A stretch of DNA of 43,382 nt from an uncultured archaeon (GTDB taxonomy: Archaea; Iainarchaeota; Iainarchaeia; Iainarchaeales; GCA-2688035): the NCBI GenBank assembly GCA_964354805.1, contig CAYHBD010000043.1, forward strand, positions 1 to 43,382, read 5' to 3'. A program made the position numbers and the translations under genes. Numbering within the stretch: the stretch's first letter is position 1; each line of letters opens with the position of its first letter. The notes beneath the pieces are model-generated. The model saw only the letters and a list, made by a program, of their open reading frames with translations. It ran no database searches and was not told the origin of the DNA. Shown piece by piece: positions 3,542 to 31,009 of the stretch.

Positions 3542-5110
3542 TCATTTGACCTCATACAAGTTACTGCATTCATCGCTGTAAACCAGCAGGACTTTTCCTT
3601 CGGCAGCCATTTCCTCAATTGCCTGCATATTCCAGGGGTTCTTGTAGCATGTTGCCGCAATGTGCGTTATGCCCTCTTTCTTCAATTCATCGTAAAGCTG
3701 CTCTGAACCCAGCGAATCAAACCTTGTAACGTATTGGAAATCTTTTTTTTCGGATATGAATGAAACCTGCCTTGCCTTGTTTGGGTGAATTGCGACAACG
3801 CTGTCAGCCGGCAGGGTTTTAACGAATTGATACAAGGGAAGATGCTGTTCATAATCATCCCTGAAATGCATTGCATAAAAAGCTGAAAATGCAATTCCGT
3901 AGACTGCTGTAAGACAAAACAGGAACAGCATAAGCTGCAGCACTTTTTTGCTGTTCAATTCCTTGAAAGCAGCGGAAAAAGCAATTGCAAACAAGGGCAG
4001 GGCTGGAACAATCAGCCTGCTGTGAATGAATCTTCTGCCCCTTGCAAAAAGCAAAACAGCAAGCAAAATGAAGCAAAACAACAGCAGCGTGTGCTGCTTT
4101 TCTTTCTTAAGCACTCCCTGAAACAGCCCGAAGAAAATGAAAATCAGCAGAGGCCCTGTTACAAGGCTGAAAAGCAAAAATGCATCTGCCTCCTGGATGC
4201 CAAAAGGCATTGCATCAAAGGATTGGCTTAAAAAAAACCAGAAGCTGGCGTTGAATCTTGCAGGCAGGGCCAGAACAGAGTCAATTGAAAGCACAGGCAG
4301 GGCACTGCCTTCCAAAAGATAGGTTGTCTGTGTTTCTGTCAGCAAAAAGTCCCCTGTTCTGAAAAATGCCAGAAGAAACCAAACAGATGAAAGCAGCAAT
4401 GTTGCAAAAACAAATAACAGGACAATTGCCATTTTTTTGTGAGCATGCGCTTTGCCTTTTTTGATTAATTCAAACAGAAAAGCAAAAAAGAATGCGGGTA
4501 TGAGAATGGTTGCACTGACTTTGCTTAAAGCGCATGCTGCTATTGCAAAAGGCATTAAAACCAAAAAAACGCGTTTGCCTGTTTCAACAAAACGCCAGTA
4601 AACAAAAAAACAAAGCAGGACAAAAATGCTGGCAAAGGTTTCAGTGTAATTCAGGGCACCGAATATTATCAGCGAAGGGTGCACTGCAACAAAAGCAAGC
4701 CCAGGCAGGTAGTTTTTGGGAAAAAGCCTTTTCAGCAGCGCGAATGCCAAAAACAGCTGTATTGCCGAGAAAATGAATGGAAAAATCCTCGCGGTTGAAA
4801 GCGTGAAAGGCAGCTGAAAGAAAATGAATGGCAAAGCCGTTACAAAGTAATACAAAGGCGTGGTTATCGGGCCAGCAGACAGCATTTCAGGTGGCAACGC
4901 CCTGTTTTCCGCAACATAGCGCGTTATATTAAGGTGATACAAGGTATCGTTTAGCTCTGCATCAGGCAAAGTAAGCAGAACAAACAGCCTTGCAATCAAG
5001 CCAGCTGCAATTATTGCAACAAAAATTTTGTCTTGTGCGGGCAATGAAAAGAATTTCCCCCGCATTTCAATGGATTGTTGCTTCAAATATGGCAATATCG
5101 GTTTATTCAT
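3542..5110 (-). CDS. GT-C fold membrane glycosyltransferase (ArnT/PMT-like)
   Basis: Multi-TM; acidic first loop (DAELNDTLYH), TPLYY, ETFASIF, LSK, RLIVPALP; soluble C-terminal domain. Confidence 0.75.
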   Translation of the reverse strand: MNKPILPYLKQQSIEMRGKFFSLPAQDKIFVAIIAAGLIARLFVLLTLPDAELNDTLYHLNITRYVAENRALPPEMLSAGPITTPLYYFVTALPFIFFQLPFTLSTARIFPFIFSAIQLFLAFALLKRLFPKNYLPGLAFVAVHPSLIIFGALNYTETFASIFVLLCFFVYWRFVETGKRVFLVLMPFAIAACALSKVSATILIPAFFFAFLFELIKKGKAHAHKKMAIVLLFVFATLLLSSVWFLLAFFRTGDFLLTETQTTYLLEGSALPVLSIDSVLALPARFNASFWFFLSQSFDAMPFGIQEADAFLLFSLVTGPLLIFIFFGLFQGVLKKEKQHTLLLFCFILLAVLLFARGRRFIHSRLIVPALPLFAIAFSAAFKELNSKKVLQLMLFLFCLTAVYGIAFSAFYAMHFRDDYEQHLPLYQFVKTLPADSVVAIHPNKARQVSFISEKKDFQYVTRFDSLGSEQLYDELKKEGITHIAATCYKNPWNMQAIEEMAAEGKVLLVYSDECSNLYEVK

Positions 5111-5396
5111 ACATTAATACCTTTTTTTAATACAGCTAAGCTGAAAAGTTATTTAAACAACTTACTGCTTTTGTTTGGTACGATTGTCAAAAAATAAGTA
5201 TTTTTAATTAAATAATGCAATTTAGTCTTTAGGGTTTGGGGATGAAACCAATGCGATGGGAATTCGCAAAAAAAAAATTTAGTCTCTACAATAATTTCAC
5301 TTATATTTTCTGTTTGAGAATTTTCTAAAACAATTGCAGGCATTCAAGCTGAAAACAAGCTTAAAGCAGTTGCGGTAATGGATAGGTGGTAGAAAG

Positions 5397-6086
5397 GTGA
5401 GCATCACAGAAAAGACTTACAAAGAGGCCAAGCGTCATAGCAAAGCTTGGATAACAGGCAAAAAAAAGATGCGACCGATTTCCGAGATGATCATGGCAAT
5501 ATTCAACAAAGACAGCAGGGTAAACATTGCTGATATTGGCGGCATAGGGGAATCCTATTCTTTTTTCAAAGAACTGCTTCCTTACGCTGCGATTTGGACA
5601 GTAAACCATGTTGAAGAGCATATGAAGGGGTGCAAGAACTGCGTTTTGGAAGACTTCTCAGAGAAGATAAGCCTGCCTTCTGGAAAGTTTGACTTGGTTT
5701 TTTTGGGGGACACTCTGGAACATATGGCGGATACCGATACCCTTGTCGAGGAAATCTGCAGGATAACAAAATGCGGCGGTTTTCTCATATTGACCACGCC
5801 AAATATGGCAAGTTGGGTAAACCGCTTTTCACTGTTGTTTGGGTTTGCACCGACAAACTATCACCCATCGGATATAAGGTATGGGGCAATAACAGGCGCT
5901 AACCGCGCATCCTACCACAAGTCGGTATTTACCTTGCCGGCTCTGAAGTCGTTCCTAAAACAGCATGGCTTTGAGACCCTGAAAACCAGGGGCTTCAGTT
6001 ATCATAACATGCCAATTTGCAGGCTTGCAAGCCTGCTGCCCAAAACATGGCAGGAAGGCATAATAGTGTTGTGCAAAAAAAAATAG
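5397..6086 (+). CDS. Class I SAM-dependent methyltransferase
   Basis: IADIGG, FDLVFLGDTLEH, GGFLILTTPN. Confidence 0.85.
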   Translation: MSITEKTYKEAKRHSKAWITGKKKMRPISEMIMAIFNKDSRVNIADIGGIGESYSFFKELLPYAAIWTVNHVEEHMKGCKNCVLEDFSEKISLPSGKFDLVFLGDTLEHMADTDTLVEEICRITKCGGFLILTTPNMASWVNRFSLLFGFAPTNYHPSDIRYGAITGANRASYHKSVFTLPALKSFLKQHGFETLKTRGFSYHNMPICRLASLLPKTWQEGIIVLCKKK

Positions 6087-6103
6087 ACCGCAGGCGATAT
6101 AGT

Positions 6104-6196: not shown

Positions 6197-6229
6197 TAAA
6201 TTTGACAATAGCGCAGATATGTCTGGCGT

Positions 6230-7225
6230 TTGATTGCTATGCTTGCATCAAAAAATTTAGTAGTGCTGATTCCAGCATTCAACGAGCAGCAGACAATCGC
6301 AGGCGTAATCAAGCAAATCCCGAGAAAAATTCCCGGAATAAAAAAAGTTTTAGTGCTTGTTGTTGACGACGGCAGCAGCGATGCAACAGTGGAAAAAGCA
6401 AAGAAGGCAGGCGCTGACAGAATCGTTTCCCACAACACAAACAAGGGTCTTGGGGCAGCGTTCAAAACAGGCCTCAATGAAGGGCTTGCAATGGGCGCAG
6501 ACATAATAGTGAACATTGATGCCGACGGGCAATTCAACCCTGCGGACATTGAAAAGCTCATCAAGCCAATCCTGCAGAACAGGGCAGATGTTGTAACATG
6601 CAGCAGGTTCAAGGACAAGGCAATTTGCCCAAAAATGCCTTTCATTAAAAAATTCGGGAACAAGGTTTTCACTGCAGCAATCAACCTTTTCACAGGCAGC
6701 GGCTTCACTGATACGCAGTGCGGATTCAGGGCATACAGCAGGGAGGCTGCCTTAAGGGCAAACCTTTTCGCAAGATTCACTTACACCCAGGAGGTATTGA
6801 TTGACCTGATGCAGAAAGGCATGCGGATACGCGAGGTTGCATGCGAGGTCAAAGGCCAGAGGGAAGGGCAAAGCAAGGTCGTAAGGCACTGGTACAGCTA
6901 TGGGGCAAAGGCGCTGATAATTGTCCTGAGAACACTGCGGGACTACAAGCCGCTGCAGTTCTTCGGCTCAATCGGTTTGCTGTTCTTCTTAGCAGGCGCA
7001 ATCAGCGCATTTATTCTCTGGATAAGGCTTTTGCTGCTGCATAAAATCGACCCGTTTATGTGGGTTGTTTACGCTGACGTTATCCTAATTGTGCTTGGAT
7101 TCCTTTTGATGATTCTTGCACTGATTGCAGACATGCTGGACAGGCAGAGAAAGCTGCAGGAAGAGATATTGTACAAGCTGAAAAAGGAACAGCTGGAACA
7201 AATCCACGGCAAGCAAGGGCACTAA
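6230..7225 (+). CDS. GT2 polyprenyl-phosphate glycosyltransferase (DPM1-like) with C-terminal TM helices
   Basis: IPAFNE, VVDDGSSD, NKGLG, DADGQ, DTQCGFRA; alternative ATG at 6239. Confidence 0.92.
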   Translation: MIAMLASKNLVVLIPAFNEQQTIAGVIKQIPRKIPGIKKVLVLVVDDGSSDATVEKAKKAGADRIVSHNTNKGLGAAFKTGLNEGLAMGADIIVNIDADGQFNPADIEKLIKPILQNRADVVTCSRFKDKAICPKMPFIKKFGNKVFTAAINLFTGSGFTDTQCGFRAYSREAALRANLFARFTYTQEVLIDLMQKGMRIREVACEVKGQREGQSKVVRHWYSYGAKALIIVLRTLRDYKPLQFFGSIGLLFFLAGAISAFILWIRLLLLHKIDPFMWVVYADVILIVLGFLLMILALIADMLDRQRKLQEEILYKLKKEQLEQIHGKQGH

Positions 7226-7320
7226 CAACAGGCCAAGTAAATACTATTGGTAAAATTGTTTCTCTTCAATTGAATTTCAGCAAACCTTATAAAAACTTTC
7301 AAAGGGATTGTTTTAATACC

Positions 7321-8853
7321 ATGAACGCAAAAACACTGCTCATCCTTCCGCCGCGCACTGTGCAGATTACAGGGTCTTTGGAAGCGCACCAGCCGCCGCT
7401 TGGGCTGGCTTACCTTGCAGCAATGCTTGAAAGCAAGGGGCATAAAGTGAAAATAATTGACGCAGTAGCAGAGGGATTGAGCAATAAGGCAATGGTCAGC
7501 CAGCAATTTTTAAGGGTAGGCTTGAGTGATGAGGAGCTTGCCCGAAGAATCAAATCATATGCGCCTGATGTTGTAGGCATAAGCTGCATGTTCACAGCCT
7601 TTAAAGACGACGGCCTGAGGGTTGCGGCTATTGCAAAAGAAGCAATGCCTGATGCGCTTACTGTCCTTGGCGGAGCCCATGTTTCGGCAAACCCTGAGCA
7701 AACAGCCAGGGAACCAAACGCGGATATTGCAATATTCGGCGAAGGGGAATTGACATTGCTTGAAATCGTTGAACAGGTTGAAAAAGGCAAAAAGCCGGCC
7801 AAAATAGACGGCACTGCTGTCAAGAGCGGGAAAGGCGTTAAAAGAAACAAGCCCAGACAACTCCTGCCAAACCTTGACCTGCTGCCTTTTCCTGCAAGGC
7901 ATCTTTTGCCAATGGATATTTACTTCGGCCTGCAGAGGCAGAATTACGCTTTCAGCATGCGGTATCCCATAATAGAGCTTATCAGCAGCAGGGGATGCCC
8001 TGGCAAATGCGTTTTCTGCGCAGTACACGCAATCTGGGGGAGATGCTGGAGGCCAAGAAGCGCAGGCAATGTTGTCGATGAAATAGAATATTGCATGCAA
8101 AAATACGGAGCAAGGGAAGTAAATTTCACTGACGACAACATTTCACTATCAAAGAAAAGAATGATTGAAATCTGCAAAGAAATAATTGGCAGAAAGCTTG
8201 ACATTAAATGGCATACCCCGAACGGCATAGCAATCTGGACCCTTGACAAAGAAGTGCTGGCATGGATGCGCAAAAGCGGCTATTACAGGGCAAAGTTTGG
8301 CCTGGAAACAGGCAGCAGCAGAATGCAGAAATACATCGGAAAAAACATTGACCTTGCCTACGCAAAAGAAGTCATCAAAGAATGCAACAGGGCAGGGATT
8401 TGGACTGCTTCAAGTTTTATGATAGGTTTCCCTGATGAAACAGAGGAAGACATAAACCAAACAATTGAATTCGCAAATAGCACGCACCTCGACTTTGCCA
8501 GGTTTCTGATTGCACAGCCATATGCAGGCACGCAGTTATTCGACCAATTTGCGGAAAAAGGCCTGCTGCAGGGGAAACGCACAAAAGCAAGCAGCGCATT
8601 CCACACCTCTTACGATACAGCGCACCTCACGGCAAAACAGCTGAATGAAATAAGGATAAGCGCACACAAGCAATTTATGCGCAGCAGGGTCAAGCTGATG
8701 CTGAACCCAGGTTATTTCTTCACGGAATTCCTGCCAAAGGTTGCTTCAACCGAAGACTTCACGCATTTTGTGAGAAACGCGTTTACCCTGCTGAAAGGCA
8801 AAACCGCAGGGAAAAAGAAAACAGGCACAGTGCAGCAGGCAAGCGAAGACTGA
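7321..8853 (+). CDS. Cobalamin-binding radical SAM protein (paralog 1)
   Basis: PPLGLAYLAA, GGAH, GEGE, SRGCPGKCVFC, GLETG, FMIGFP, PYAGT. ATG 7321 preferred because a TTATAAAA box lies ~30 nt upstream. Confidence 0.92.
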   Translation: MNAKTLLILPPRTVQITGSLEAHQPPLGLAYLAAMLESKGHKVKIIDAVAEGLSNKAMVSQQFLRVGLSDEELARRIKSYAPDVVGISCMFTAFKDDGLRVAAIAKEAMPDALTVLGGAHVSANPEQTAREPNADIAIFGEGELTLLEIVEQVEKGKKPAKIDGTAVKSGKGVKRNKPRQLLPNLDLLPFPARHLLPMDIYFGLQRQNYAFSMRYPIIELISSRGCPGKCVFCAVHAIWGRCWRPRSAGNVVDEIEYCMQKYGAREVNFTDDNISLSKKRMIEICKEIIGRKLDIKWHTPNGIAIWTLDKEVLAWMRKSGYYRAKFGLETGSSRMQKYIGKNIDLAYAKEVIKECNRAGIWTASSFMIGFPDETEEDINQTIEFANSTHLDFARFLIAQPYAGTQLFDQFAEKGLLQGKRTKASSAFHTSYDTAHLTAKQLNEIRISAHKQFMRSRVKLMLNPGYFFTEFLPKVASTEDFTHFVRNAFTLLKGKTAGKKKTGTVQQASED

Positions 8854-8884: not shown

Positions 8885-10171
8885 TTAGTTCTTTTTTTTC
8901 CCGAGAACCGACAGCAAGTATTTTGCCCCGCTTGCCAGCAGTTTAGGGTTTTTTGCAATTCTTTTCAAAGCATAGCCTGGCCTGAGGTAAACGCTTTTGT
9001 ATGCTTTTTTGTACATGCTTTCAACCAATTCCCTGTTGAGGCAGCCGTACTCGTAGTATGCTTTGCCTGTGTAGCTTCCGTATTTGCTGAAATCCTTTAT
9101 CAGAAACTTCCCCTGTTTTTCAACCAAATCATATAACTGAGTGCCTGGGTAAGGCGTTGTAATAGTGAATTGGATTAAATCCAAATCCAGTTCCTTTGCG
9201 AAATCAATTGTTTCCTGCATTGTTTGCATGTCATCAAAAGGCAGTGCAATCATGAAGAAACCAATTGTTTCAATTCCAGCTTCCTTAGCCCAGCGCACTG
9301 CATCCCTAACCTGCTGCAAATTGATTCTTTTGCCTATTTTGTCCAGAACAGCCTGGTTTCCTGATTCAATGCCAAAGCTGAGCTGGTAGCAGCCAGCATT
9401 ATGCATCAGCCTAAGCAGCTGCGGGTCAACAGAATCAACCCTTACTCCATTCGGGCAATTCCACAAAATTTTAAAGCGCCTTTCAATCATTCCCTTGCAA
9501 ATTTCCTCAACTCTCTTCTTGTCAAGTGAAAAGTTGTCGTCAACAAAACCAATTTCCTTAACGCCATAATTTTCAATCAAATAGCCGATTTCGCTTAAAA
9601 CGTTTGCACTGCTTCTTTTCCTGTACGTGTTTCCAAAAACCCCTTTAAAGCAATAGATGCAGCTGAAAGGGCACCCCCTGCTTGACATAACAGAGAGATA
9701 GTTGTGCTTTCTTGTAACAGCCTTATACTCGTGCAAAGGCAGCCCGCTCCAATCAGGGAAAGGAAGAGTGTCCAGATCCTTGATCAGCTCGCTGTGCAGA
9801 ATTTTTTCCCTGCTTTCAAAAACACGCAAAATGCTATTTTCGCCCTCGCCAACAATCACCTTGTCAGCGTGCTGCAGGCATTCATTCGGAAAAATTGTTG
9901 CATGCGGACCCCCCATCACAACCTTTTTGCCTTGCCTTCTCAAATCGTCGCTCAGGGCAAAAGCCTTTGCAGCAGCAGGCGTGCAAACGCTCAGCCCAAC
10001 CCACTCGCTATCAATGCCTTCAATCTGCTGCCCTGCCTGCTGGTCAATCGGCTTCACAGCAATGCCCTGCCGCTTCAATACTGCTTGAAGGTAAGCGAGC
10101 CAAAGAGGCGGCGATGCATGCGCTGCGTAGACATCAGCAGCCAAATTTATTAAAGTGATTGAATCACGCAT
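8885..10171 (-). CDS. Cobalamin-binding radical SAM protein (paralog 2)
   Basis: PPLWLAYL, GGPHAT, GEGE, SRGCPFSCIYC, GIESG, PYPGT. Confidence 0.92.
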   Translation of the reverse strand: MRDSITLINLAADVYAAHASPPLWLAYLQAVLKRQGIAVKPIDQQAGQQIEGIDSEWVGLSVCTPAAAKAFALSDDLRRQGKKVVMGGPHATIFPNECLQHADKVIVGEGENSILRVFESREKILHSELIKDLDTLPFPDWSGLPLHEYKAVTRKHNYLSVMSSRGCPFSCIYCFKGVFGNTYRKRSSANVLSEIGYLIENYGVKEIGFVDDNFSLDKKRVEEICKGMIERRFKILWNCPNGVRVDSVDPQLLRLMHNAGCYQLSFGIESGNQAVLDKIGKRINLQQVRDAVRWAKEAGIETIGFFMIALPFDDMQTMQETIDFAKELDLDLIQFTITTPYPGTQLYDLVEKQGKFLIKDFSKYGSYTGKAYYEYGCLNRELVESMYKKAYKSVYLRPGYALKRIAKNPKLLASGAKYLLSVLGKKKN

Positions 10172-10376: not shown

Positions 10377-11792
10377 ATGAACATTGTTTTCTTGAACCCT
10401 CCTTTCAAGGAGGGCTACAACAGGGAAGTCAGGTTCCAGGCTGTTTCACCCCAAAAAGCACTGCACCCGCCGATAATGCTTGCATATGCAGCTGCTGTCT
10501 GCAGGCAACAGGGCCACAAAGTCGACTTAATTGACGCGCCCGCACTCGAGCTTTCAGCAGAGCAGACAATTGAAAGGATTGTGGCAATTAAGCCAAGCTA
10601 TGCTGTTCTGCTTACATCAACAGCATCAGTGCAGAGCGATGCAGCGCTTGCAAAAAAAATAGCAGCCCTAACAGGCGCTAAAACAGTTGCAGTAGGAGTG
10701 CACGCTACGGCAGCTCCAGAAGACACCCTGCAGAAAGGATTTGACATAGTTGCAAGAGGCGAATATGATTACACAATAAGGGACTTGGCCAATGGAACGG
10801 AATTGCGCAAAGTGCTGGGCATTTCTTTCAAAAAAGGAAAAAAAATAATTCACAATGAGCCACGCCCTCTAATACGCAACCTTGATGAACTGCCTTTTCC
10901 AGCAAGGGAATTCCTGCCGAATGAAAAATATTACAGCGCATTGTACAAGAACCCATTCACTTTTGTCCTGGCAGGCAGGGGCTGCCCTAACCAGTGCATT
11001 TTCTGCGCCGGCCCGAAACTGATGTTTGGCAGGGCTTACAGGCTGAGGTCACCGCAAAACATTGTTGCAGAATTGAAGCATCTTAAGGAAAACTTTAATT
11101 TCAAAAGCGTCCTCTTCAATGACGACACTTTGAATGTAAACAAAAGCCATCTGCTTGAATTATGCAGCCTCATGGTAAAAGAAAAAATCGACTTGCCCTG
11201 GGCTGCCTACAGCAGGGTTGACACTGTTGACAGGGAGATAGCAGCAGCAATGAAAAAAGCAGGCTGCTTTTTGGTAAAGGTCGGCTTTGAGTCAGGCTGC
11301 AATGAATTGCTGCAGTCAATGAAAAAAGGCCCAAGGGCAACAACAGAACAGGCAATTAAATGCGCCCACTATTTCAAAGAGGCAGGCATCCAGGTGCATG
11401 GAACATTTGTTTTCGGAATGCCAGGCGAAACAGCGGAAACAATAAGAAAAACAATTGATTTCGCAAAAAAGCTTGACATTGATTTCGTTCAATTCAGCAT
11501 AGCCCAGCCTTATCCAGGCACAGAATTTTACAATTACCTTGAAAGCAACGGCATGCTATGCTTCAATGAATGGAGCGACTACCTTGATGCAGAGGGCAGA
11601 ATCACCCCTATATTTGAGTACCCGCATTTAAGCAAGAGCGAGATGTGCTACTGGATAAAGCAGGCATACAAAGAATACTATTTGAGGCCAAGCTATATCC
11701 TTAAAGCACTAAGGCAGAGGGCAACAAACTGGAATCTGCTCAAAACAAGCATTTCAAGCGCCTTCAATCTGATTCAGTACATGAGAAGCTGA
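10377..11792 (+). CDS. Cobalamin-binding radical SAM protein (paralog 3, HpnJ-like features)
   Basis: PPIMLAYAAA, GVHAT, RGEYD, GRGCPNQCIFC, GFESG, HGTFVFGMPGE, PYPGT. Confidence 0.92.
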   Translation: MNIVFLNPPFKEGYNREVRFQAVSPQKALHPPIMLAYAAAVCRQQGHKVDLIDAPALELSAEQTIERIVAIKPSYAVLLTSTASVQSDAALAKKIAALTGAKTVAVGVHATAAPEDTLQKGFDIVARGEYDYTIRDLANGTELRKVLGISFKKGKKIIHNEPRPLIRNLDELPFPAREFLPNEKYYSALYKNPFTFVLAGRGCPNQCIFCAGPKLMFGRAYRLRSPQNIVAELKHLKENFNFKSVLFNDDTLNVNKSHLLELCSLMVKEKIDLPWAAYSRVDTVDREIAAAMKKAGCFLVKVGFESGCNELLQSMKKGPRATTEQAIKCAHYFKEAGIQVHGTFVFGMPGETAETIRKTIDFAKKLDIDFVQFSIAQPYPGTEFYNYLESNGMLCFNEWSDYLDAEGRITPIFEYPHLSKSEMCYWIKQAYKEYYLRPSYILKALRQRATNWNLLKTSISSAFNLIQYMRS

Positions 11793-19732: not shown

Positions 19733-21229
19733 CTATTGTTTTCTCTTCAGGACAAACCCGTAGTTGAATGTCTTGTAAAGGGGCTTCTGCATTTTCTGCG
19801 TTTTCACGACCTCGTAATTCTCGCGCAGGTATTCGTATATTTTGTCTTCTCCCTGCAGCGGCTGCTCTGTCCTGCTGAAATTAATCACAAAGAGCGGCTT
19901 TGTTTCGCGCATTGACTGGATTGACTCAAGCTCATACAACTGCTGCGCTTCAGCGCCAAAAAATGGCTGGTAAATGTAACGCGTTGCTGGCTTCCTCAGG
20001 CAGAAGAAATACATCTCCTCATCCCACCAGGTAACATGAATCCTGTCATCAGGAGAACTGTTCTGCTTTACGTATGCCGCGATTTCAAACAGGTCATTGA
20101 AATCGTTGTGGAAAAAGAACTGCGGAAGGTAGGCGGCCGGTCCCACAATGCTTGCAAAAAAAACCAGTATAACAAACAGCCGCAGCAAAGGCATTGCATT
20201 AAATCCCTGCAATTTGAATCTTCCACCCCTCAGAAAGGCAGCCTCAAAAAGCAGCCCGAAGAAAATCGAAAACGGCGGCACAAGTGGTGCAAAGTGGCCG
20301 CAGCAGCCCAGAACCGGCAGCAAAGTCGGTGCTGCAAGAATAAACCAGGCCAGAACAAGAGCAATCTTTTTTCTCTCTTTTTCAGGCTTTTCCCTGAAGA
20401 AAAAAAGCATGGCAAGCACTGGCACTGAGACAAACAAAAAAAGCGCGGCAAGCACGCCAACCGCGCCAATTGCTGTGGTCAATTTGAAGGCAAACAGCGG
20501 CGCGCTCTGCAAATCGTGCAGTATTGCCTGGCCTACGAAATCACTGAAAGCGTTGTTTGCGATGAGGTAAAGGAGGAAAATGAACGGGAAAAGAGCGCAA
20601 GAGAAAAGAAATGCGGCCAGGTGCCGCATGTTCAGCTTTGCCCTCAGCAGCATGAACAAAAGCAGCCCTATTGAGAGGAAAAGCATTGTCTGCTTCAGCA
20701 GAACCAAGCCCGAAATAAGAAAGCCGACTGCAAGCAGGCTGGGCATTTTTCTTTTCTCAAGGAAACAAAAAAGCGCATAGAACAGGGCAACGGAAAAAAG
20801 CATCAGGAAAGGCTCGATGAGTATGTTCCAGCTGACTGTGAAAGCGCCCCAAATGACGTAGAAAAAAGACGCAAGCAGTGCCGTTCTCTCATTAAGCATT
20901 TTTTTGCACAGCAGGAAGAAAACAGCCAGGGTGCACGTGTTCACCGCCAGAATGAACAGCCTGCTTATGACAAAATCCGGGGGGAAAACCGAATAGAGCG
21001 CCGCGAAAATGAAATATATGCCAGGCGAATACATTGAGAAAAATTCCTTGTACAAAACAGTGCCCTGCAGCAGCAGCCAGCCGCCTGTCGTGTAAATGCC
21101 CTCGTCAGGGTTTGGCCTTGCAAGAAGCAAAGCAAGAACCAGGGCAATCTGCAATAATGCGATAACCAAAAAAGCCGCCCTGGCATTGCTTGAAAATTTT
21201 CCGAAAAAACGTTTAAATGAAAAAACCAA
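19733..21229 (-). CDS. GT-C fold membrane glycosyltransferase (ArnT/PMT-like)
   Basis: NPDEGIY first-loop DE motif, LYKEFF..SPG, EPF, LKQ, HFAPLVP; soluble C-terminal domain. Confidence 0.82.
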   Translation of the reverse strand: MVFSFKRFFGKFSSNARAAFLVIALLQIALVLALLLARPNPDEGIYTTGGWLLLQGTVLYKEFFSMYSPGIYFIFAALYSVFPPDFVISRLFILAVNTCTLAVFFLLCKKMLNERTALLASFFYVIWGAFTVSWNILIEPFLMLFSVALFYALFCFLEKRKMPSLLAVGFLISGLVLLKQTMLFLSIGLLLFMLLRAKLNMRHLAAFLFSCALFPFIFLLYLIANNAFSDFVGQAILHDLQSAPLFAFKLTTAIGAVGVLAALFLFVSVPVLAMLFFFREKPEKERKKIALVLAWFILAAPTLLPVLGCCGHFAPLVPPFSIFFGLLFEAAFLRGGRFKLQGFNAMPLLRLFVILVFFASIVGPAAYLPQFFFHNDFNDLFEIAAYVKQNSSPDDRIHVTWWDEEMYFFCLRKPATRYIYQPFFGAEAQQLYELESIQSMRETKPLFVINFSRTEQPLQGEDKIYEYLRENYEVVKTQKMQKPLYKTFNYGFVLKRKQ

Positions 21230-21242
21230 AAAAAATCACACC

Positions 21243-21785
21243 CTATTTTCTAGGTATCTTCCTGAACTTTATTACATCGGTAAGGCCCCAGACGCTTTTC
21301 TCCATTTCCACGGCAAAGTAGCCTCTGAAGAATTTTTTCCATTCTTTCTTTGTTTTTATGTTCACGTGGTCGTGCTTGAAGTTAGAACCTGCAATGTTCG
21401 TGAACAAAAACCAGACAAGCTGCGCAAACAGGCTTCCGCTGAAAGAAGAGAAAACAAAAACGCCGTTGTCCCTGAGGACCCTGTGGACCTCGGCCCTGGC
21501 TTTCTCGGCTTTTGGCACGTGCTCGAAAATCTCTGTTGCGACAACCGCGTCGAAGTGCTTAGGGGGAAAAGGTATCCTCTCAATGCTGCCCTGCCTGAAA
21601 TCAAAATCAGCTTGCCTGCACTTCTTCAAGTCCATGCCTGTGCCCCTGCCAAGCATCTTCAAAAAAGCGCCGTCTTCAATGGTTTTGCATGGCCCGCAGC
21701 AGCCGATATCCAAAACCTTTTTTGCCCCGCCAACGAATTCAACAGCCGCCTTGTAGCGCCGCCTGTGCCATGACTCCCTGAACAT
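21243..21785 (-). CDS. Class I SAM-dependent methyltransferase
   Basis: VLDIGC, GMD, FDAVVATEIFEH, RVLRDNG. ATG 21785 follows a GGTG SD-like motif; the track start is 21812. Confidence 0.85.
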   Translation of the reverse strand: MFRESWHRRRYKAAVEFVGGAKKVLDIGCCGPCKTIEDGAFLKMLGRGTGMDLKKCRQADFDFRQGSIERIPFPPKHFDAVVATEIFEHVPKAEKARAEVHRVLRDNGVFVFSSFSGSLFAQLVWFLFTNIAGSNFKHDHVNIKTKKEWKKFFRGYFAVEMEKSVWGLTDVIKFRKIPRK

Positions 21786-21865
21786 TAAACACACCAACAA
21801 AGCATTAAACAAGGAAATGAATTAAATAACAAACGTTGACCTCAACCATCTTTTCAACATTTGTA

Positions 21866-22591
21866 CTACTGCCTGGACCTTAATGCCGAACGAAGCTTGA
21901 AAAGCTGCCACAGCATTTTTACTGTATTCAGGCCAACCCGCATCTTGCTTCCCTTGACATGGCTCCACTCGATTGCTATCACGCCTGTTCTTGCGCCTTT
22001 TGCTTTTGCCCTTGCAATTAATTCGACATCAAAAACCCACCTGTTTGAAACCATTTGCCTTGCAATTTCCTTTGCAAGCGGCGCCCTCATTCCCTTAAAG
22101 CCGCATAATACATCTTTTACATTGAAATTGAACAACAATGCAACCGTTGTGTTGAAGCCCCAGCTTAGAAAACGCCTGTACAACGGCTGCCCTGCAATGA
22201 TCCTTGCCTTTTCTGTTTTCCTGTTTCCAACAACAAGGTCATTGCCCTGCAAAGCATCAAACATTGCACTCAGCTGCGATGCGGGCGTTGCACCATCTGC
22301 ATCCATAAAGCAGACAAAGCTGCCTTTTGCTGCAAGTATGCCTGTTTTGACAGCGTTTCCCTTGCCCATGTTTGGCTTGTAGGAAATAATCTTTATCTTG
22401 CCTTCAAATTGTTTAAGGATGCTGAGCGTTGCATCGCTGCTGCCGTCATCTACCACGATTATTTCCTCAATGAAGTTATTTTTTTCCTTAAAAAACAAAA
22501 GGGTCTGCAGAAAGGGCTTTATTCTCTTTTCTTCATTGAATGCAGGAACTATGACAGAAATGGTTTCTTTGCTTTTAGTCATTTCAAACAA
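21866..22591 (-). CDS. GT2 dolichyl-phosphate glycosyltransferase (ALG5/DPG-synthase-like)
   Basis: VPAFNE, VVDDGSSD, NMGKG, DADG, DVLCGFK, WVFDVEL, GSK; alternative ATG at 22582. Confidence 0.92.
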   Translation of the reverse strand: MFEMTKSKETISVIVPAFNEEKRIKPFLQTLLFFKEKNNFIEEIIVVDDGSSDATLSILKQFEGKIKIISYKPNMGKGNAVKTGILAAKGSFVCFMDADGATPASQLSAMFDALQGNDLVVGNRKTEKARIIAGQPLYRRFLSWGFNTTVALLFNFNVKDVLCGFKGMRAPLAKEIARQMVSNRWVFDVELIARAKAKGARTGVIAIEWSHVKGSKMRVGLNTVKMLWQLFKLRSALRSRQ

Positions 22592-22788: not shown

Positions 22789-23760
22789 TTAAAAAGCAAA
22801 GCGAACTTTTTTTTCAGCCTGAAAGAAAATAAAGCCTGTTAAGCCGAGCAACAGGGCGCAAAATAGTATAAGCAGCGAAAAAGAAACAGCTGAATCCGCT
22901 GTTATGCCCACCAAGCCAAGGAAAAAAATAAGGCCGGCCTCCCTTGTGCCAATGCCGCTGAATGCGATTGGCAGCACGCTTAACAATTCAACAAGCGGCA
23001 TTATTGCAATAAGGTAAACAAAGGAAACATTGAGGCCAAGGGAATTGGCAATTAAATAGTATTGCAATATTCCCACAATCCAGCAAAAAAAAGTAAGCAA
23101 TAAAATCATTAAAAGGAACAATTTTTTTGATTTATATACAGCCACCCCTTCAAAGAACTGGTTAAAGCCGCCCCTAAAATTGCTCTGCAGCCTTTTTGGA
23201 ATTAAATGCCTGTAAAAAGGCTTTACAAAAAACAAAACAATTTCTTTTTTCGTTAAAATGAACACAAGCGCAATAAACGCCATGAAAAACAAAAGCAATG
23301 GCAGAATCAGTTCAGCCTCTAAAATGAAATGAAAAGACACAATAGCAAAGCCAACCAATGAAAGCAAGAACAAAGCAGCAACATCAAAAAATCTTTCAAT
23401 TACAACAGCGGTAAGGCCTTTGCCTGCTACAACCCCTGTTTTGCTTGCAAAGTAGAAGCTTTTAACCAAGTCACCTGACCTGCCAGGGCTTATTATTGAA
23501 AAGAAAAAACCAATCAGCCAAATCCTGGCGGAATCAAATAAACTCAATTTAACAGCAAAGGTGTTAACCAAAAGAGCCTGCTTGAATGCTTTGAGCAAAA
23601 CACTTGGAACGATTGCGATTAACGCAATTGAAAAAAGCAACGGATTCAACCGCAAAAAAATCCCGATTATTTTGCTTGGGCCGATTGCGAAAACAATGAA
23701 AAGGAAAACAATCAAGCCAATTAATCCGAGGTAACGCAGTAACCGCATAAAAACCAACAA
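22789..23760 (-). CDS. UPF0104 / LPG-synthase TM domain flippase-like protein (AglD2-like)
   Basis: ISPGRSGDLVK, ERFFD, LPIAFSGIGTREA; probable ATG at 23748. Confidence 0.88.
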   Translation of the reverse strand: MLVFMRLLRYLGLIGLIVFLFIVFAIGPSKIIGIFLRLNPLLFSIALIAIVPSVLLKAFKQALLVNTFAVKLSLFDSARIWLIGFFFSIISPGRSGDLVKSFYFASKTGVVAGKGLTAVVIERFFDVAALFLLSLVGFAIVSFHFILEAELILPLLLFFMAFIALVFILTKKEIVLFFVKPFYRHLIPKRLQSNFRGGFNQFFEGVAVYKSKKLFLLMILLLTFFCWIVGILQYYLIANSLGLNVSFVYLIAIMPLVELLSVLPIAFSGIGTREAGLIFFLGLVGITADSAVSFSLLILFCALLLGLTGFIFFQAEKKVRFAF

Positions 23761-26183: not shown

Positions 26184-26888
26184 ATGAAAATCTCTCTTGT
26201 TTCTCCTGAAAGAAACGAAAAAGCTGTTTTGCCCGAACTGCTGTGCAGGGTTAACGCAGTGATGGCAAAGCACTTCAAGCAAAACGAATGGGAGTACATA
26301 ATTGTTGATGATGCAAGCACTGACGGCAGCAGCGAAACCCTGTTGCAGCTTGCAAAACGTTACAAGAACCTAAAACCGGTTTTCCACGGCGAGAGGAAAG
26401 GCCAGACAGGCTGCTTCCAGAGCGGGTTTGAAGCGGCAAAAGGCGAATATGCCATAACAATGGATGCAGACCTGCAGGTTCTGCCTGAAGACCTGCCGCT
26501 CTTTTTTGCAAAAATAAGGGAAGGCTATGAGCTGGTTAACGGCATCAGGGAGAACAGGCAGCACCCTTTTTTGGTGAGGCTTGCCAGCAGGGGCTACAAC
26601 CTGTTAATGCTTCTAATCTTCAACTGCCCTGTCCTTGATGCGGCAAGCAATTACACTGCAATAAAATCGGTTTATTTGAAAAATCTCCGGCTTGTAGACA
26701 ACGACCACAGGTATCTGATTCCAATCCTGCAAAAAAGAGGCCTGCTAAAAATAGGGGAAGCGGTTGTAAGGCACCAACGCAGGGCAAAGGGCAGGTCAAA
26801 CTACGTTGCCTGGAAGAAATACATAAAAGGCATTCCTGAAATCTTTTTGGCATACATTAGGATAAGGTTTGGAAACAAATACAGGTAA
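26184..26888 (+). CDS. GT2 polyprenyl-phosphate glycosyltransferase (ArnC/DPM-like)
   Basis: VDDASTD, RKGQT, TMDADLQ, HRYLIP, VRHQRRAKGRSNY. Confidence 0.9.
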   Translation: MKISLVSPERNEKAVLPELLCRVNAVMAKHFKQNEWEYIIVDDASTDGSSETLLQLAKRYKNLKPVFHGERKGQTGCFQSGFEAAKGEYAITMDADLQVLPEDLPLFFAKIREGYELVNGIRENRQHPFLVRLASRGYNLLMLLIFNCPVLDAASNYTAIKSVYLKNLRLVDNDHRYLIPILQKRGLLKIGEAVVRHQRRAKGRSNYVAWKKYIKGIPEIFLAYIRIRFGNKYR

Positions 26889-26920: not shown

Positions 26921-28384
26921 ATGAAAAAGGTTACTATTAAAAAGAGTGAAACAGACGTTCTGCTTATTACACCCCCGTGCATAGAGCTTTACAGCGGCAT
27001 GAGGGGAGGCGCCCCGATTTACCCGCCCCTGGGCCTTGCTTACATAGCGGCATTGCTGCTGAAAAACAATTTTAGCGTAAAAATACTTGATGCCTTTGCA
27101 GAAAACCTCCAATGGCCGGAAATAGAGGCGCGAATAAAGGAAGCAAATCCAATGGCCGTAGGCATTACAGGCACGACATCAACTTTTCGGGAAGCAGTGC
27201 AAATTGCAAAAATTGCAAAACGGGTTTTGCCCGGCGTTAAAGTTATTGCAGGCGGAATTCACACTACTGTTCTGCCAAAATACACGCTGCAGCGCCATCC
27301 TGAAATTGACATAATAACAATCGGTGAAAGCGATTTCACAATGCTCGAATTGGCTAGGGCTTTAAAAGAAGGGAAATCCCTTAAAAAAGTCAAAGGACTT
27401 GCATTCAGGGACGGAAAAAAAATAGTTTTCACAGAACCAAGGCCGAGAATAATGGACCTTGACCAGCTGCCATTCCCCGCAAGGCATTTGCTGCCAAACG
27501 AAAAATACAGGCCGCCTTCAAAGGCGCCGATTAAATTCCCATTCACAACAGTTATGACAAGCAGGGGCTGCCCAAGCGCCTGTGTTTTCTGCGCCTCCAA
27601 GGTAATGTGGGGCAGGCTGCTGGTGCAGAGAAGCGCTGAGAACGTTTTAAGCGAAGTAGAAGATATTGTAAAAAATTACCATATAAAGCAGGTCATTTTC
27701 GCTGACGACACTTTTACGATAAACAAGCAAAGGCTCTTTAAAATTTGCGACGGCCTTGCCAAGCTGGGCATTGTCTGGGGGTGCAGCAGCAGGGTCAACA
27801 CAATTGACGAAGAGGCAATTAAAAAAATGAAAGAAAGCGGCTGCATTTGGCTTGAGTTTGGAATAGAGAGCGGCAGCCAAAGGGTGCTGGACATAATCAA
27901 AAAAGGCATTAACCTGCAACAGGCAAGAGAGGCCATAAGGCTGGCAAAAAAATATAAAATCCAAACAAGCACTGCTTTCATGATTGGAAACATCGGCGAA
28001 ACAAAAGAAGACATTGAAAAAACAATCCAATTCATGAAAGAGCTTGACAGTGATTACCTTAACCTTTCAATTCTAACGCCATACCCTGGCACAGAATCCT
28101 ATGAGCTGGCGGAAAAAAAAGGCTATTTAAAAATCGGCTTCGAGTCATACACCCAGCCAAAGTACTCAGACCCTGTCATTGAATTGCCGGGCATTTCAAC
28201 GGAAGAGCTGAAAGCGTATTGGAAAAAAGGAATGCGACAGTTCTACCTGCGGCCGAGCTTCATAATCAGGATGCTGAGGCGTAGCCTTACAGATTTTGAA
28301 GAATTCAAAAAGCTGGTCCGGACAACAAAACCATTCTTGGTGATGGTTTTTTTCAAGAAAAAAGGCAAAAGCGAAAAAAAATGA
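26921..28384 (+). CDS. Cobalamin-binding radical SAM protein (paralog 5)
   Basis: PPLGLAYIAA, GGIH, GESD, SRGCPSACVFC, GIESG, FMIGNIGE, PYPGT. Confidence 0.92.
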   Translation: MKKVTIKKSETDVLLITPPCIELYSGMRGGAPIYPPLGLAYIAALLLKNNFSVKILDAFAENLQWPEIEARIKEANPMAVGITGTTSTFREAVQIAKIAKRVLPGVKVIAGGIHTTVLPKYTLQRHPEIDIITIGESDFTMLELARALKEGKSLKKVKGLAFRDGKKIVFTEPRPRIMDLDQLPFPARHLLPNEKYRPPSKAPIKFPFTTVMTSRGCPSACVFCASKVMWGRLLVQRSAENVLSEVEDIVKNYHIKQVIFADDTFTINKQRLFKICDGLAKLGIVWGCSSRVNTIDEEAIKKMKESGCIWLEFGIESGSQRVLDIIKKGINLQQAREAIRLAKKYKIQTSTAFMIGNIGETKEDIEKTIQFMKELDSDYLNLSILTPYPGTESYELAEKKGYLKIGFESYTQPKYSDPVIELPGISTEELKAYWKKGMRQFYLRPSFIIRMLRRSLTDFEEFKKLVRTTKPFLVMVFFKKKGKSEKK

Positions 28385-28503
28385 ATTAGCAGCGGAGAAA
28401 AAGCCTTTCTTTAGAAAAGAAAGCCTTGGGAAAGAAAGAATCAATCGGGAATAAAAATGAAAACTATTTATAATCTATCCGATAAGTTATTTACTTAATT
28501 TGG

Positions 28504-29025
28504 GTGAATTGCTTGCCGCCAATAAACCAGAACATCGCGAACCCTATCGCAAAAATCTATTTCAAGTCGATTTACAAGAATGCAGTGAAAATGGCTGAAC
28601 TGAGGCCGGACGATACCTGCCTCGATTTTGGCTGCGGCAGCCAGAGCCTGCGTGCTTACATCCGCTGCAAGAACTATATCGGCTACGATATTTTGCCGGA
28701 ATTTAGCGACATCAGTGATTACCGGAAAACAAAACCGACTGTTGTGTTCGCATTGGCTGTCCTGGAGCACCTTACAGACAAGGAGATTGCAGAGTTTGCC
28801 GACTGGCTGTGCCTGGCAAAACCCAGGCGCATAGTCATCAGCATGCCGTGCGACTACTTCACAAACCGGTTTTTCAAGTTCATCACAGGCAGGGATTTCA
28901 TAAACGACATAGAGCACATCAACCACTGGAAAAACACCGGCAGGATCCTGATTAAAAAGCTGCGCCTGCTGGGCTATAAGCGGGTCTGGATGATGCAATG
29001 GATAAGCAGCTGGGAACCGCGCTGA
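28504..29025 (+). CDS. Small class I SAM-dependent methyltransferase
   Basis: LDFGCG, YIGYD, AVLEHL; TTG at 28513 after GGGTGA is a plausible true start. Confidence 0.8.
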   Translation: MNCLPPINQNIANPIAKIYFKSIYKNAVKMAELRPDDTCLDFGCGSQSLRAYIRCKNYIGYDILPEFSDISDYRKTKPTVVFALAVLEHLTDKEIAEFADWLCLAKPRRIVISMPCDYFTNRFFKFITGRDFINDIEHINHWKNTGRILIKKLRLLGYKRVWMMQWISSWEPR

Positions 29026-29038
29026 GCGCAGAAAGTGA

Positions 29039-31009
29039 TTGGAATTGCGGCATCTCTTGCAACAGCGTGAACCGCTGCTTTTTTTTGCGGCTTACTTCAT
29101 TCTCGCAAGCATTGCGACGTTCCCGCTGATTTTAAATTTCGGCACAATGATTTACGGCACGCATGGCGACCCCACGCTTGCAATCACCACCATTGACGCA
29201 CTTGCAAAAAACAATTACCTTTTCACAGGCAACAGCGTGGACAAAAGTGTTGGGGCTCCTTTTGGCACAGATGTCAAATACACTGATTTCATGCCGTTTA
29301 TAGTGTATCTGCTTGCGCCCTTATCCCTTGTTATTGGAGCTGTTGCTTCCTATAACCTGATTCAATTCCTGTCGCTGCCTTTGGCTGCATTCGCAATGTA
29401 TTTGCTGGCGAGAAAGTTCTCTTTGAGCAGGAAAGCCTCTTTCCTCGCCGGATACATCTTTTCTTTCTATCCGTTCCACCTCCAGCACACTGTCAGCACC
29501 ACACTTAACAAAAGCCAGACTTGGGCCATTCCGCTATTTGTGCTCGCTTTGATAAACTTTGACAAAAAAAAAGACGCAAAAAACGCCACTGCCCTGGCAG
29601 CGGCAGCATTTGCAACTGCATTCTTTTCATACTACCACTTCTTCTTTGCCGTGCTTTTCACAGCAATTTTCTACATCTATAAGCTGTTGTACAAGCAGCC
29701 TATTGCAAAGAAAAGCGAGATAAAGCACTTCGCAATAGCGGGTGCGGTTTTCTTCATTCTGTTCGCATGTCTGATACTGCCCATCTTGCAGAGCGCAGCT
29801 GAAGCCGGCGAAGCCAGCGCTACGTCTGTTTTCTCCAGTGAGCACTCAACTGTGCTAAAGGCAGCCATTGGCTCTGCTCCACCGGAATTCTTTGTAATTC
29901 CACCAGCTCAGCACCCGCTGTTGGGCAGCATAACCATGCCGCTGCTGAATATGCCGGGCTGGAATATTGAGTCCACAGCGCTTTACCTCGGCTTCAGCGT
30001 GCTGGCGCTTGCAGGATACGCCCTTCTCAAAGTAAAGAACGACGATAGGGTGCGCTTCCTCTTGTTCTCAAGCGTTTGCGTTTTCGTTCTAGCGACAGGG
30101 CTTTTCCTGCGCTACATCGACCTGTTTGGACTGCACATTGCTGCAGCGCCACTTGTGGTGGCAATCTATTTCCAATACACCGGAAGAAAAAAGCTGGCTG
30201 CAGGCGCTGTTGCCCTCGGCCTGCTGTTCGCGTTGCTGCCGTTGTTTTACCCTTACCTTATCCCGATTGCAATCGCGCCCGGCAAGCTGGCTACAGGCAT
30301 AAACTTCAGCGAATTTTCCGCAATGGATGTCATAGAGCATCTTGACAAATACCACTACTTTCCGATTCCAATGCCTTCGCTTGCAACATTCTACATTGCG
30401 CCATTCTTCAGGAGCTATGCCAATTTTGCGCTATGGCTCATCCTGTTCATTGCCCTCATTGCCGCAATTGGCTTTGACAAAGCATTCAGCCATTCAAAAA
30501 ACAGCAGGCTAATGTTTGCGATTGTTTTTTTGGTGCTTTTGTTTGATTATGCAAACGTTCCGCCCTGGCGCACTACAGACTTGTCGCAGGTTCCGGAGGA
30601 ATACGGCTGGCTTGCATCGCAGCAGGGCGATTTCATTGTTGCAGAGTATCCGCTTGACTATTACTCTCTTTACTCATACTACCAGCTTGTGCACGGCAAA
30701 AGGCTTTTCAACAGCCAGTATTCGCAGCAGATTGTTGAACTTGGAAAGCAGTTGTGGGACATCAGGAAAGAGGAAACAGCAGAAAAGCTATCGGAATTGG
30801 GCGTGCAATTCGTTATACTGCATGATGAAACCCTTGCCGACAGGGTGCCGCCAAATATAATCACCAGGGCAATGTTTGAAAGCTGGTATAGGGGCAAGAG
30901 GGTGGATGCTGTCCAAGAATTCCTGAAAAACAACTTAAATGGCACAAAACTGCTGCGCCCTGTTGCAAGATTCAGCCATGCCACAATATTTGAGGTTGTA
31001 AAAGAATAG
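29039..31009 (+). CDS. Large polytopic membrane protein, YfhO/GT-C-like
   Basis: HGDP loop, YNL, AMYLLAR, AGYIFSFYPFH, YYHF, LYLG, and a C-terminal EYP...YQLVHGKRLFN...LGVQFVILH, as in YfhO-like GT-C proteins. Confidence 0.7.
   Translation: MELRHLLQQREPLLFFAAYFILASIATFPLILNFGTMIYGTHGDPTLAITTIDALAKNNYLFTGNSVDKSVGAPFGTDVKYTDFMPFIVYLLAPLSLVIGAVASYNLIQFLSLPLAAFAMYLLARKFSLSRKASFLAGYIFSFYPFHLQHTVSTTLNKSQTWAIPLFVLALINFDKKKDAKNATALAAAAFATAFFSYYHFFFAVLFTAIFYIYKLLYKQPIAKKSEIKHFAIAGAVFFILFACLILPILQSAAEAGEASATSVFSSEHSTVLKAAIGSAPPEFFVIPPAQHPLLGSITMPLLNMPGWNIESTALYLGFSVLALAGYALLKVKNDDRVRFLLFSSVCVFVLATGLFLRYIDLFGLHIAAAPLVVAIYFQYTGRKKLAAGAVALGLLFALLPLFYPYLIPIAIAPGKLATGINFSEFSAMDVIEHLDKYHYFPIPMPSLATFYIAPFFRSYANFALWLILFIALIAAIGFDKAFSHSKNSRLMFAIVFLVLLFDYANVPPWRTTDLSQVPEEYGWLASQQGDFIVAEYPLDYYSLYSYYQLVHGKRLFNSQYSQQIVELGKQLWDIRKEETAEKLSELGVQFVILHDETLADRVPPNIITRAMFESWYRGKRVDAVQEFLKNNLNGTKLLRPVARFSHATIFEVVKE

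Follow-up and report, generated by a model that had tools for sequence, protein, structure and literature searches.

What is encoded when the same four gene families stand side by side three times on a single archaeal contig? The stretch analysed here (the window) is the complete 43.4-kb contig CAYHBD010000043.1 (C43) from the 1.38-Mb, 88.5%-complete genome (G000) of a Candidatus Iainarchaeum (DPANN) archaeon, and is most likely a hypervariable surface-glycan island of that organism. A first-pass annotation had noticed in it three groups that each combine a family 2 glycosyltransferase (GT2), a membrane glycosyltransferase of the GT-C fold, a methyltransferase and a radical S-adenosylmethionine (SAM) enzyme with a B12-binding domain (rSAM in our gene names), and had read them as parallel lipid-carrier glycosylation modules with radical and polar methylation of each sugar. 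Comparison with relatives suggests another partition: the four-family set appears to be a combination of two recurrent pairings and not a conserved unit, with the methyltransferase as an optional add-on.

Composition and histories of the three sets

An open reading frame (ORF) is present at the coordinates of all twelve set genes. Set 1 (3542-8853) has the order GT-C, methyltransferase, GT2, radical SAM and consists of GTC_1 (3542..5110, minus strand) followed by MT_1 (5397..6086), GT2_1 (6230..7225) and rSAM_1 (7270..8853) on the plus strand. Along the window set 2 (18077-22591) reads radical SAM, GT-C, methyltransferase, GT2, that is rSAM_2 (18077..19489), which is the last gene of the co-directional run, GTC_2 (19733..21229), MT_2 (21243..21812) and GT2_2 (21866..22591), all on the minus strand. 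Set 3 (26184-31009) has the order GT2, radical SAM, methyltransferase, GT-C, with GT2_3 (26184..26888), rSAM_3 (26921..28384), MT_3 (28504..29025) and GTC_3 (29039..31009) all on the plus strand; the public gene call for GTC_3 is 620 rather than 656 amino acids long, which places its start near 29147. The genes are co-directional in sets 2 and 3, and several gaps are tight: 44 nt (set 1) and 32 nt (set 3) from GT2 to radical SAM gene, and 13 nt from methyltransferase to GT-C gene in sets 2 and 3. The intergenic gaps directly before GT2_1 and GT2_2 measure 144 and 197 nt. When the labels of the 28 island genes were shuffled, three disjoint four-gene sets arose in 3.5e-5 of the shuffles and a methyltransferase adjoined all three GT-C genes in 0.015 of them.

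The triple membership proposed at first reading stands, because Pfam confirmed the families and the two proteins whose GT-C identity had been in doubt, those starting at 3542 and 29039, model as GT-C folds. GTC_2, of the PMT_2/ArnT type, passes the PMT_2 cut-off of 26.1 bits (29.5 bits); GTC_1 falls under it at 22.9 bits, and GTC_3, a DUF2079/YfhO/DUF6311-like protein, reaches 27.7 bits for DUF2079, just under 28.2, its few homologues carrying DUF6311 or YfhO. The 40 best PDB matches that Foldseek gave for the AlphaFold model of GTC_1 (predicted local distance difference score, pLDDT, 85.6; predicted template-modelling (TM) score, pTM, 0.84) are GT-C enzymes without exception (STT3, PglB, AglB, ArnT, ALG9/12; probability 1.0), the TM-score against ArnT being 0.54-0.56. 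Orthologues of this protein occur in Iainarchaeia/Diapherotrites at 41-85% identity, and D55, just past the first transmembrane helix, is invariant in 26 homologues. For GTC_3, modelled from a shallow alignment (pLDDT 66, pTM 0.74), the top 25 PDB matches were again all GT-C enzymes (STT3, DPY19, AglB, AftD, PglB, ArnT) at probability 0.99-1.0, with TM-scores of just 0.3-0.4. Searching the PDB sequences with GT-C alignment profiles gave no match, and the fold comparison alone is informative here.

The three GT2 proteins match Glycos_transf_2 at 83-97 bits (GT2_1 90.6, GT2_2 97, GT2_3 83). The top NCBIfam matches of GT2_1 are AglJ (141 bits), PpgS and a dolichyl-phosphate hexose transferase, and its best PDB matches are ArnC and the Pyrococcus DPMS, while the short GT2_3 matches ArnC (91 bits) and PgfS (64 bits) best. 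None of the window GT2 proteins attains the curated equivalog cut-offs (AglJ 141 versus 325 bits, ArnC 91 versus 529 bits), and they appear to resemble polyprenyl-phosphate sugar synthases without being orthologues of any named enzyme. A tree of GT2 sequences separates two groups: group A holds GT2_1, GT2_2 and GT2_3 and is ArnC/DPMS/AglJ/PpgS-like, and group B is MftF/EpsD-like with C-terminal transmembrane helices. The methyltransferases are small class I enzymes which all keep a DxGxG-type motif I, as DFGCG in the divergent MT_3. MT_1 (Methyltransf_23 36.6 bits, Methyltransf_11 35.8 bits) and MT_2 (Methyltransf_11 53.5 bits) lie over the Pfam cut-offs and MT_3 at 26.6 bits for Methyltransf_23 against 27; MT_3 groups with two small methyltransferases of relatives, one of which directly precedes a GT-C gene, in a tree that is too divergent to inform. 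The radical SAM proteins of the sets match both B12-binding and Radical_SAM at 74-101 bits per domain (87.9 and 84.1 bits in rSAM_1).

The window holds not three but five B12-radical SAM genes, the other two being rSAM_x1 (8885..10171, minus strand; assigned by Pfam) and rSAM_x2 (10377..11792, plus strand; HpnJ 365 bits over its full length), just behind set 1. Sequence identity among the window copies is 29-37% for the five radical SAM proteins and 26-31% for the GT2 proteins, and the GT-C proteins of the three sets give no mutual BLAST match. Among the 104 sequences of a radical SAM tree, rSAM_3 pairs with a copy from the relative G032 (71% identity), rSAM_2 with one from G041 (70%), and rSAM_x1 and rSAM_x2 with copies from G066 (63% and 79%), where the rSAM_x1 orthologue has the same position. 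A triplication of the four-gene module en bloc is rejected: the radical SAM and GT2 trees, although poorly resolved in their deep branches, assign the three sets to separate subclades whose groupings disagree, and as far as these trees resolve, the comparison of per-family trees suggested by the first-pass annotation gave no shared phylogeny. The three sets thus appear to be mosaics with different histories and not duplicates.

The sets differ also in what the relatives keep of them. Behind set 1 stands a conserved block which in G066 reads Wzx-GT-C / GT2-rSAM_x1-rSAM_x2-GT4, where GT4 denotes a family 4 glycosyltransferase. Its Wzx-type flippase gene in the window, Wzx_a (1936..3468, minus strand; Polysacc_synt 83.5 bits), lies directly downstream of GTC_1, and orthologues of 48-53% identity adjoin the GTC_1 orthologues in G066, G032 and G121. 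The GT2_1 orthologues (65-69% identity) are oriented divergently from those of GTC_1. The Wzx-GT-C / GT2-rSAM arrangement is kept in G066, G121, G106, G114 and G049; G032 keeps Wzx-GT-C / GT2 without an adjacent radical SAM gene. The closest relative of MT_1 is just 35% identical and has a different gene context, and rSAM_1 forms a long branch whose best relative in the sample is 36% identical. Since rSAM_1 has no close relative and sits beside the rSAM_x1/rSAM_x2 pair that is kept in G066, it looks like a recent insertion, and both MT_1 and rSAM_1 would seem to be insertions private to this genome.

Set 2 is bordered upstream of GT2_2 by a flippase-like membrane protein gene (22789..23760, minus strand; LPG_synthase_TM 133.8 bits; TIGR00374 98 bits, over its cut-off), whose product is a candidate flippase for dolichyl-phosphate-linked sugars. 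G032 retains GT2_2, MT_2 and this flippase-like gene, the MT_2 orthologue (66% identity) adjoining the other two, but lacks a radical SAM gene and has another GT-C-like protein; in G041 GT2_2 adjoins rSAM_2, and in G121 a small methyltransferase gene precedes the GTC_2 orthologue (52%). In set 3 rSAM_3 alone is conserved in G032.

Gene pairing among relatives

About 100 loci of relatives were annotated with a crude ORF caller and with jackhmmer families seeded from the window. Gene order was compared in 40 stretches of about 20 kb each from about 30 relatives, the pairing counts coming from 33 loci, by shuffling gene labels within each locus, with the strictest shuffle permuting labelled glycan genes only. 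Because the sampled genomes are kin and not independent samples, the P values of these co-occurrence tests overstate the case and are indicative only.

The strongest signal is the adjacency of radical SAM and GT2 genes, counted 35 times against 22.2 expected, a number reached in 0 of 3000 shuffles of the labelled genes only. GT-C-like genes adjoin GT2 genes 16 times (10.8 expected, P about 0.04) and flippase-like genes seven times (2.9 expected, P about 0.01). The GT2 partners differ by group: group A genes adjoin a GT-C-like gene in 18 of 48 cases against 7 of 102 for group B (Fisher 8e-6), and a flippase-like gene in 8 of 48 against 0 of 102 (7e-5). The recurrent units are thus radical SAM plus GT2, and group A GT2 plus GT-C plus flippase, since only these pairings beat shuffling.

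The full set and the position of its methyltransferase fare differently. All four families fall within four genes nine times against 2.8 expected (P 0.004), a count that without the window drops to six against 2.6 (P 0.06) and becomes marginal, so that a conserved four-family unit, as first envisaged, does not emerge from the comparison with shuffled gene order. The statement that the methyltransferase is always next to the GT-C gene describes the window correctly and does not extend to the relatives: the two adjoin nine times against 8.5 expected overall, which is no enrichment, and six times against 7.6 outside the window. In 42 loci that lack Iainarchaeum in the record title, radical SAM genes adjoin GT2 genes 29 times against 12.3 expected, the stop and start codons overlapping in several of them; all four families are present in just 5 of 47 loci without that name in the title.

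HpnJ-like radical SAM enzymes

All five radical SAM proteins of the window match PF02310 (51-88 bits) and PF04055 (84-101 bits), and the cysteines of the CxxxCxxC motif (C217, C221, C224) are invariant in 20 sequences. HpnJ (TIGR03471) is the best curated family for four of the five (173-365 bits, with 221 for rSAM_2, 288 for rSAM_3 and the maximum for rSAM_x2, the most HpnJ-like of the window) and for a further copy on contig C3 of the same genome (423 bits), with none of these reaching the cut-off of 577.6 bits; relatives in bacteria and Hydrothermarchaeota score 390-455 bits. The remaining protein, rSAM_1, has the Sden_1168 family as its best NCBIfam match (248 bits, cut-off 575). Phosphonate tailoring, which the P-methyltransferase activity of that family would suggest, is rejected for now and its chemistry is unlikely, because no phosphoenolpyruvate mutase turned up in this genome of 88.5% completeness. 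The best PDB match of rSAM_3 is AprD4 (117 bits), a diol dehydratase acting on an aminoglycoside sugar, with TokK and OxsB lower in the list.

HpnJ remodels, by ring contraction, a lipid-bound glucosamine installed by the GT2 enzyme HpnI. A review of the cobalamin-dependent radical SAM class names HpnJ, BchE and OxsB as non-methylases, and in a published similarity network HpnJ falls into one cluster with MoeK5 and Fom3; methylation is thus one of several options. The nearest characterised relatives, HpnJ (ring contraction) and AprD4 (dehydration), are not methylases, and the radical methylation assumed at first reading is not borne out, which makes annotation of these enzymes as methylases premature. 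The enzymes of the window are likewise rejected as a true HpnI/HpnJ hopanoid pair, their scores lying under the cut-off and the partner GT2 not being HpnI.

The genome carries nine B12-radical SAM genes in total, eight of them in sugar contexts. Outside the window the arrangements are GT2 then radical SAM on C47, radical SAM-methyltransferase-GT2 on C3 and GT2-epimerase-radical SAM on C46. The copy on C42 is solitary, beside genes for prolyl-tRNA synthetase and an amino-acid kinase, and groups with a copy from G112 (L070) that itself lies beside epimerase and methyltransferase genes; the function of the C42 copy may differ.

Of 201 genomes sampled from the phylum, 125 contain homologues of rSAM_3 (E < 1e-30), often more than one. 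A scan across phyla, made with one genome per species and with a narrow alignment as query that samples the rSAM_x2/operon clade only, found relatives of 37-44% identity outside the phylum, in no fewer than 11 others, including Myxococcota, Nitrospirota, anammox Planctomycetota, Chloroflexota, Thermodesulfobacteriota, Patescibacteria, Aenigmatarchaeota, Hydrothermarchaeota and Njordarchaeota, and within this sampled clade the pair of radical SAM and GT2 genes is likewise met with in at least 11 further phyla. In five such pairs from loci without Iainarchaeum in the title the radical SAM proteins have HpnJ-like scores under the cut-off and the partner GT2 belongs to group B rather than to HpnI. 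A mycofactocin-like system, suggested by the MftF-like matches of the group B enzymes, is rejected, the scores being under the cut-off and the radical SAM enzyme of a different type. The radical SAM-GT2 combination therefore looks like a widespread, uncharacterised enzyme pair, for which HpnJ is the one relative to have been studied.

Several further observations concern this family. In anammox Planctomycetota (Scalindua, Brocadiaceae; L129, L133, L142, L154) four to six B12-radical SAM genes stand in an array, with GT2 and methyltransferase genes after them (rSAM rSAM GT2 MT). Two records, JAFCCG010000002 (L080, 'Chloroflexi bacterium AB_1215_Bin_59') and JAFCCH010000010 (L081, 'Thaumarchaeota archaeon AB_1215_Bin_64'), hold radical SAM proteins 73-74% identical to rSAM_x2; the titles of these metagenome-assembled genomes look mislabelled, and L079 ('Chloroflexota bacterium CSMAG_1825') may be another such case. 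The radical SAM matches G114:C46, G134:C81, G106:C2 and G147:C32 carry one or two in-frame TAA stops and may be decaying paralogues, which would fit a fast turnover of the family.

Proposed lipid-carrier branches and competing readings

The reading that we prefer, and whose chances we judge to be about even, is that the island encodes parallel branches, of the Arn/Gtr/AglD-R-S type, that work with dolichyl-phosphate sugars and include radical tailoring of the lipid-linked sugar. At least three side-branch glycosylation routes would run in parallel via the lipid carrier. In each, the ArnC/DPMS/AglJ-like GT2, to judge from its family, would charge dolichyl (polyprenyl) phosphate on the cytoplasmic side with a sugar taken from a nucleotide sugar. 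The HpnJ-like radical SAM enzyme, usually encoded right after the GT2, would then alter the lipid-linked sugar in the cytoplasm. If the product has to remain usable as a donor for glycosyl transfer, C-methylation or deoxygenation suits it better than a ring contraction of the HpnJ type; on that premise C-methylation as by MoeK5 or GenK would be most likely, with deoxygenation or rearrangement as alternatives. The small class I methyltransferase may carry out an O- or N-methylation, the flippase-like or Wzx protein would take the charged carrier to the outer face, and the GT-C enzyme, recognized by its predicted fold, would pass the tailored sugar to an N-glycan, a surface-layer protein or a lipid acceptor. 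A dolichyl-phosphate carrier and N-glycosylation are available to the cell, because the genome encodes a cis-prenyltransferase and AglB.

Among the closest described parallels is N-glycosylation in Haloferax volcanii, in which the GT2 enzyme AglD charges dolichyl phosphate with one sugar, the Wzx-like AglR helps its flipping and AglS adds it outside to the N-linked glycan. That gene cluster includes a SAM methyltransferase (AglP), a uridine diphosphate (UDP)-glucose dehydrogenase and a nucleotidyltransferase, families which are all found in the window; AglM and AglF also belong to the system. The Haloferax pathway has no radical SAM enzyme, whereas the window has three branches and five radical SAM genes, and orthology to the Agl proteins is unsupported, as the subthreshold AglJ score indicates. 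The bacterial systems ArnC/ArnD/ArnT, FlmF2/NaxD/FlmK and GtrA/GtrB/GtrC combine a GT2, a modification of the lipid-linked sugar at the cytoplasmic face, flipping and a GT-C in the manner proposed for the window; in the first two the sugar is modified on polyprenyl phosphate before flipping. ArnC is the best solved or curated match of GT2_1 and GT2_3, and ArnT superposes on GTC_1 at a TM-score of 0.56. Arn and Flm, however, tailor the sugar with a deformylase or deacetylase in place of a radical SAM enzyme, lipid A or O-antigen serves as acceptor in the bacterial systems, and an LPG_synthase_TM-type or Wzx protein stands in the window in the place of a GtrA- or ArnE/F-type flippase, of which none turned up, no search having been aimed at either.

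For the radical SAM step itself the resemblance is to HpnI/HpnK/HpnJ: once a GT2 has attached a hexosamine to a lipid, a B12-domain radical SAM enzyme remodels the lipid-bound sugar. The window and C3 copies differ from that system in scoring 173-423 bits against 577.6 and in their partner GT2; no HpnK-type deacetylase is found in the window and no hopanoid genes were found, and hopanoid synthesis is not known from archaea. The ring-contracted ether product of an HpnJ-type reaction could not, moreover, be a donor for a GT-C enzyme. GenK, GenD1, MoeK5 and AprD4 provide precedents for radical chemistry on a glycosidically bound sugar, as proposed for the window enzymes; they differ in belonging to actinomycete secondary metabolism, in having no polyprenyl-phosphate GT2 or GT-C as a partner and in their low identity. 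The Gtr/Arn-type logic of the first-pass annotation is therefore reasonable, given the GT2 families, the adjacency of GT2, GT-C and flippase genes, the cis-prenyltransferase and AglB; what does not carry over is the idea of one module and the assumption of radical methylation.

A number of observations weigh against tailoring on the lipid carrier. Radical SAM genes are depleted beside GT-C genes (7 adjacencies against 13.2 expected; outside the window 6 against 12.3). In the most widespread form of the radical SAM-GT2 pair the GT2 belongs to group B and is not of the polyprenyl-phosphate synthase type, and a nucleotidyltransferase gene often lies just upstream, which fits tailoring of nucleoside diphosphate (NDP)-sugars equally well. 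Within the window GT2_2 has mixed NCBIfam matches, yet shares its tree group with GT2_1 and GT2_3, and hydropathy predicts two C-terminal transmembrane helices in GT2_1 and zero in GT2_2 and GT2_3; short curated members without a C-terminal extension do exist, such as those of the PpgS profile (226 positions). The nearest characterised relatives offer no methylase, as noted, and AprD4 is not known to use cobalamin. The genome, 88.5% complete, yielded neither CobS nor a PduO-type adenosyltransferase, so that any cobalamin would need scavenging. Finally, sequence does not reveal which reaction this radical SAM clade catalyses, nor whether it acts on NDP-sugars, on lipid-linked sugars or on lipids.

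Among the alternatives, the one that survives best has the radical SAM enzymes acting on soluble NDP-sugars by C-methylation, deoxygenation or epimerisation, after which the paired GT2 would transfer the sugar and the GT-C would serve separately. We consider this unlikely, even though a conserved operon clade (nucleotidyltransferase-rSAM-GT2-GT4-GT4) places a gene for a sugar-1-phosphate nucleotidyltransferase and/or an epimerase just upstream and has the radical SAM gene preceding that of the GT2, Fom3, whose substrate is activated with cytidine monophosphate, co-clusters with HpnJ, and radical SAM genes are not enriched beside GT-C genes. In the window and on C47 the order is instead GT2 then radical SAM, the GT2 being ArnC/DPMS-like, and the characterised relatives HpnJ, MoeK5 and AprD4 act on sugars that are glycosidically attached beforehand and not on NDP-sugars.

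A step less probable is a remodelling of glycolipid head groups, in which the radical SAM enzyme and GT2 would build a cyclitol- or calditol-like head group as an end product, or modify the lipid as the methylase Gmm does, leaving GT-C and methyltransferase to other glycans. The standing of HpnJ as best family for most of the copies must be set against scores that all lie under the HpnJ cut-off and a partner GT2 which is not HpnI (about 25 bits, or not among the matches listed). HpnJ and the calditol synthase Cds do produce ether-linked cyclitols on membrane lipids, the flippase-like gene is also a weak HpnL match, and archaeal tetraether lipids are methylated by a MoeK5-like B12-radical SAM enzyme; the neighbouring Wzx, GT4, UDP-glucose dehydrogenase, epimerase and aminotransferase genes are nevertheless typical of glycan assembly, and nine paralogues within 1.4 Mb are more readily explained by glycan diversity than by a core pathway of lipid synthesis.

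That the sets are no functional modules at all and merely by-products of a gene-dense, fast-rearranging island made up of a few over-represented families, so that belonging to one set would not point to a common substrate, agrees with their mosaic make-up, each gene having its own nearest relative and context, and with the unenriched methyltransferase-GT-C adjacency and marginal four-family clustering (P 0.06) outside the window, and is rendered very improbable by the three disjoint sets (P about 3.5e-5), the tight gaps and shared direction of sets 2 and 3, and pairings that are non-random both within the lineage and across phyla for radical SAM-GT2 and within the lineage for group A GT2 with GT-C and flippase.

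The rest of the window has the typical content of a glycan island, with genes for two Wzx flippases, two GT4 enzymes, three UDP-glucose dehydrogenase-like proteins, epimerases, a DegT aminotransferase and nucleotidyltransferases. In the literature searched we found no paper describing the combination of GT2, GT-C, methyltransferase and B12-radical SAM, and to that extent the absence of a described system remarked on at first reading holds; its GT2, flippase, GT-C and methyltransferase part is of a kind already known from AglD/AglR/AglS/AglP of Haloferax, and the undescribed part is the paired HpnJ-like radical SAM step. With recurrence limited to two gene pairs, the first targets narrow to GT2_1 with rSAM_1 and GT2_3 with rSAM_3, and the widespread pairing of a membrane GT2 with an HpnJ-like radical SAM enzyme lends itself to testing.

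The surface glycans of DPANN archaea, the chemistry of which is almost unstudied, are likely to be central to the contact with the hosts to which these archaea live attached. We tentatively propose, as something plausible though short of probable, that the HpnJ-like radical SAM enzymes form a large class which tailors polyprenyl-phosphate-linked or membrane-GT2-bound sugars to C-methyl, deoxy or carbocyclic sugars displayed at the surface, and which has expanded in DPANN (and the candidate phyla radiation) with their tiny genomes, to nine copies in 1.4 Mb here, diversifying the surface glycans. With nine genes that encode B12-binding domains, and with neither CobS nor a PduO-type gene turning up, the genome suggests dependence on the host or community for the cofactor; if the tailoring class proves real, organisms unable to make cobalamin would have a glycan code that depends on it.

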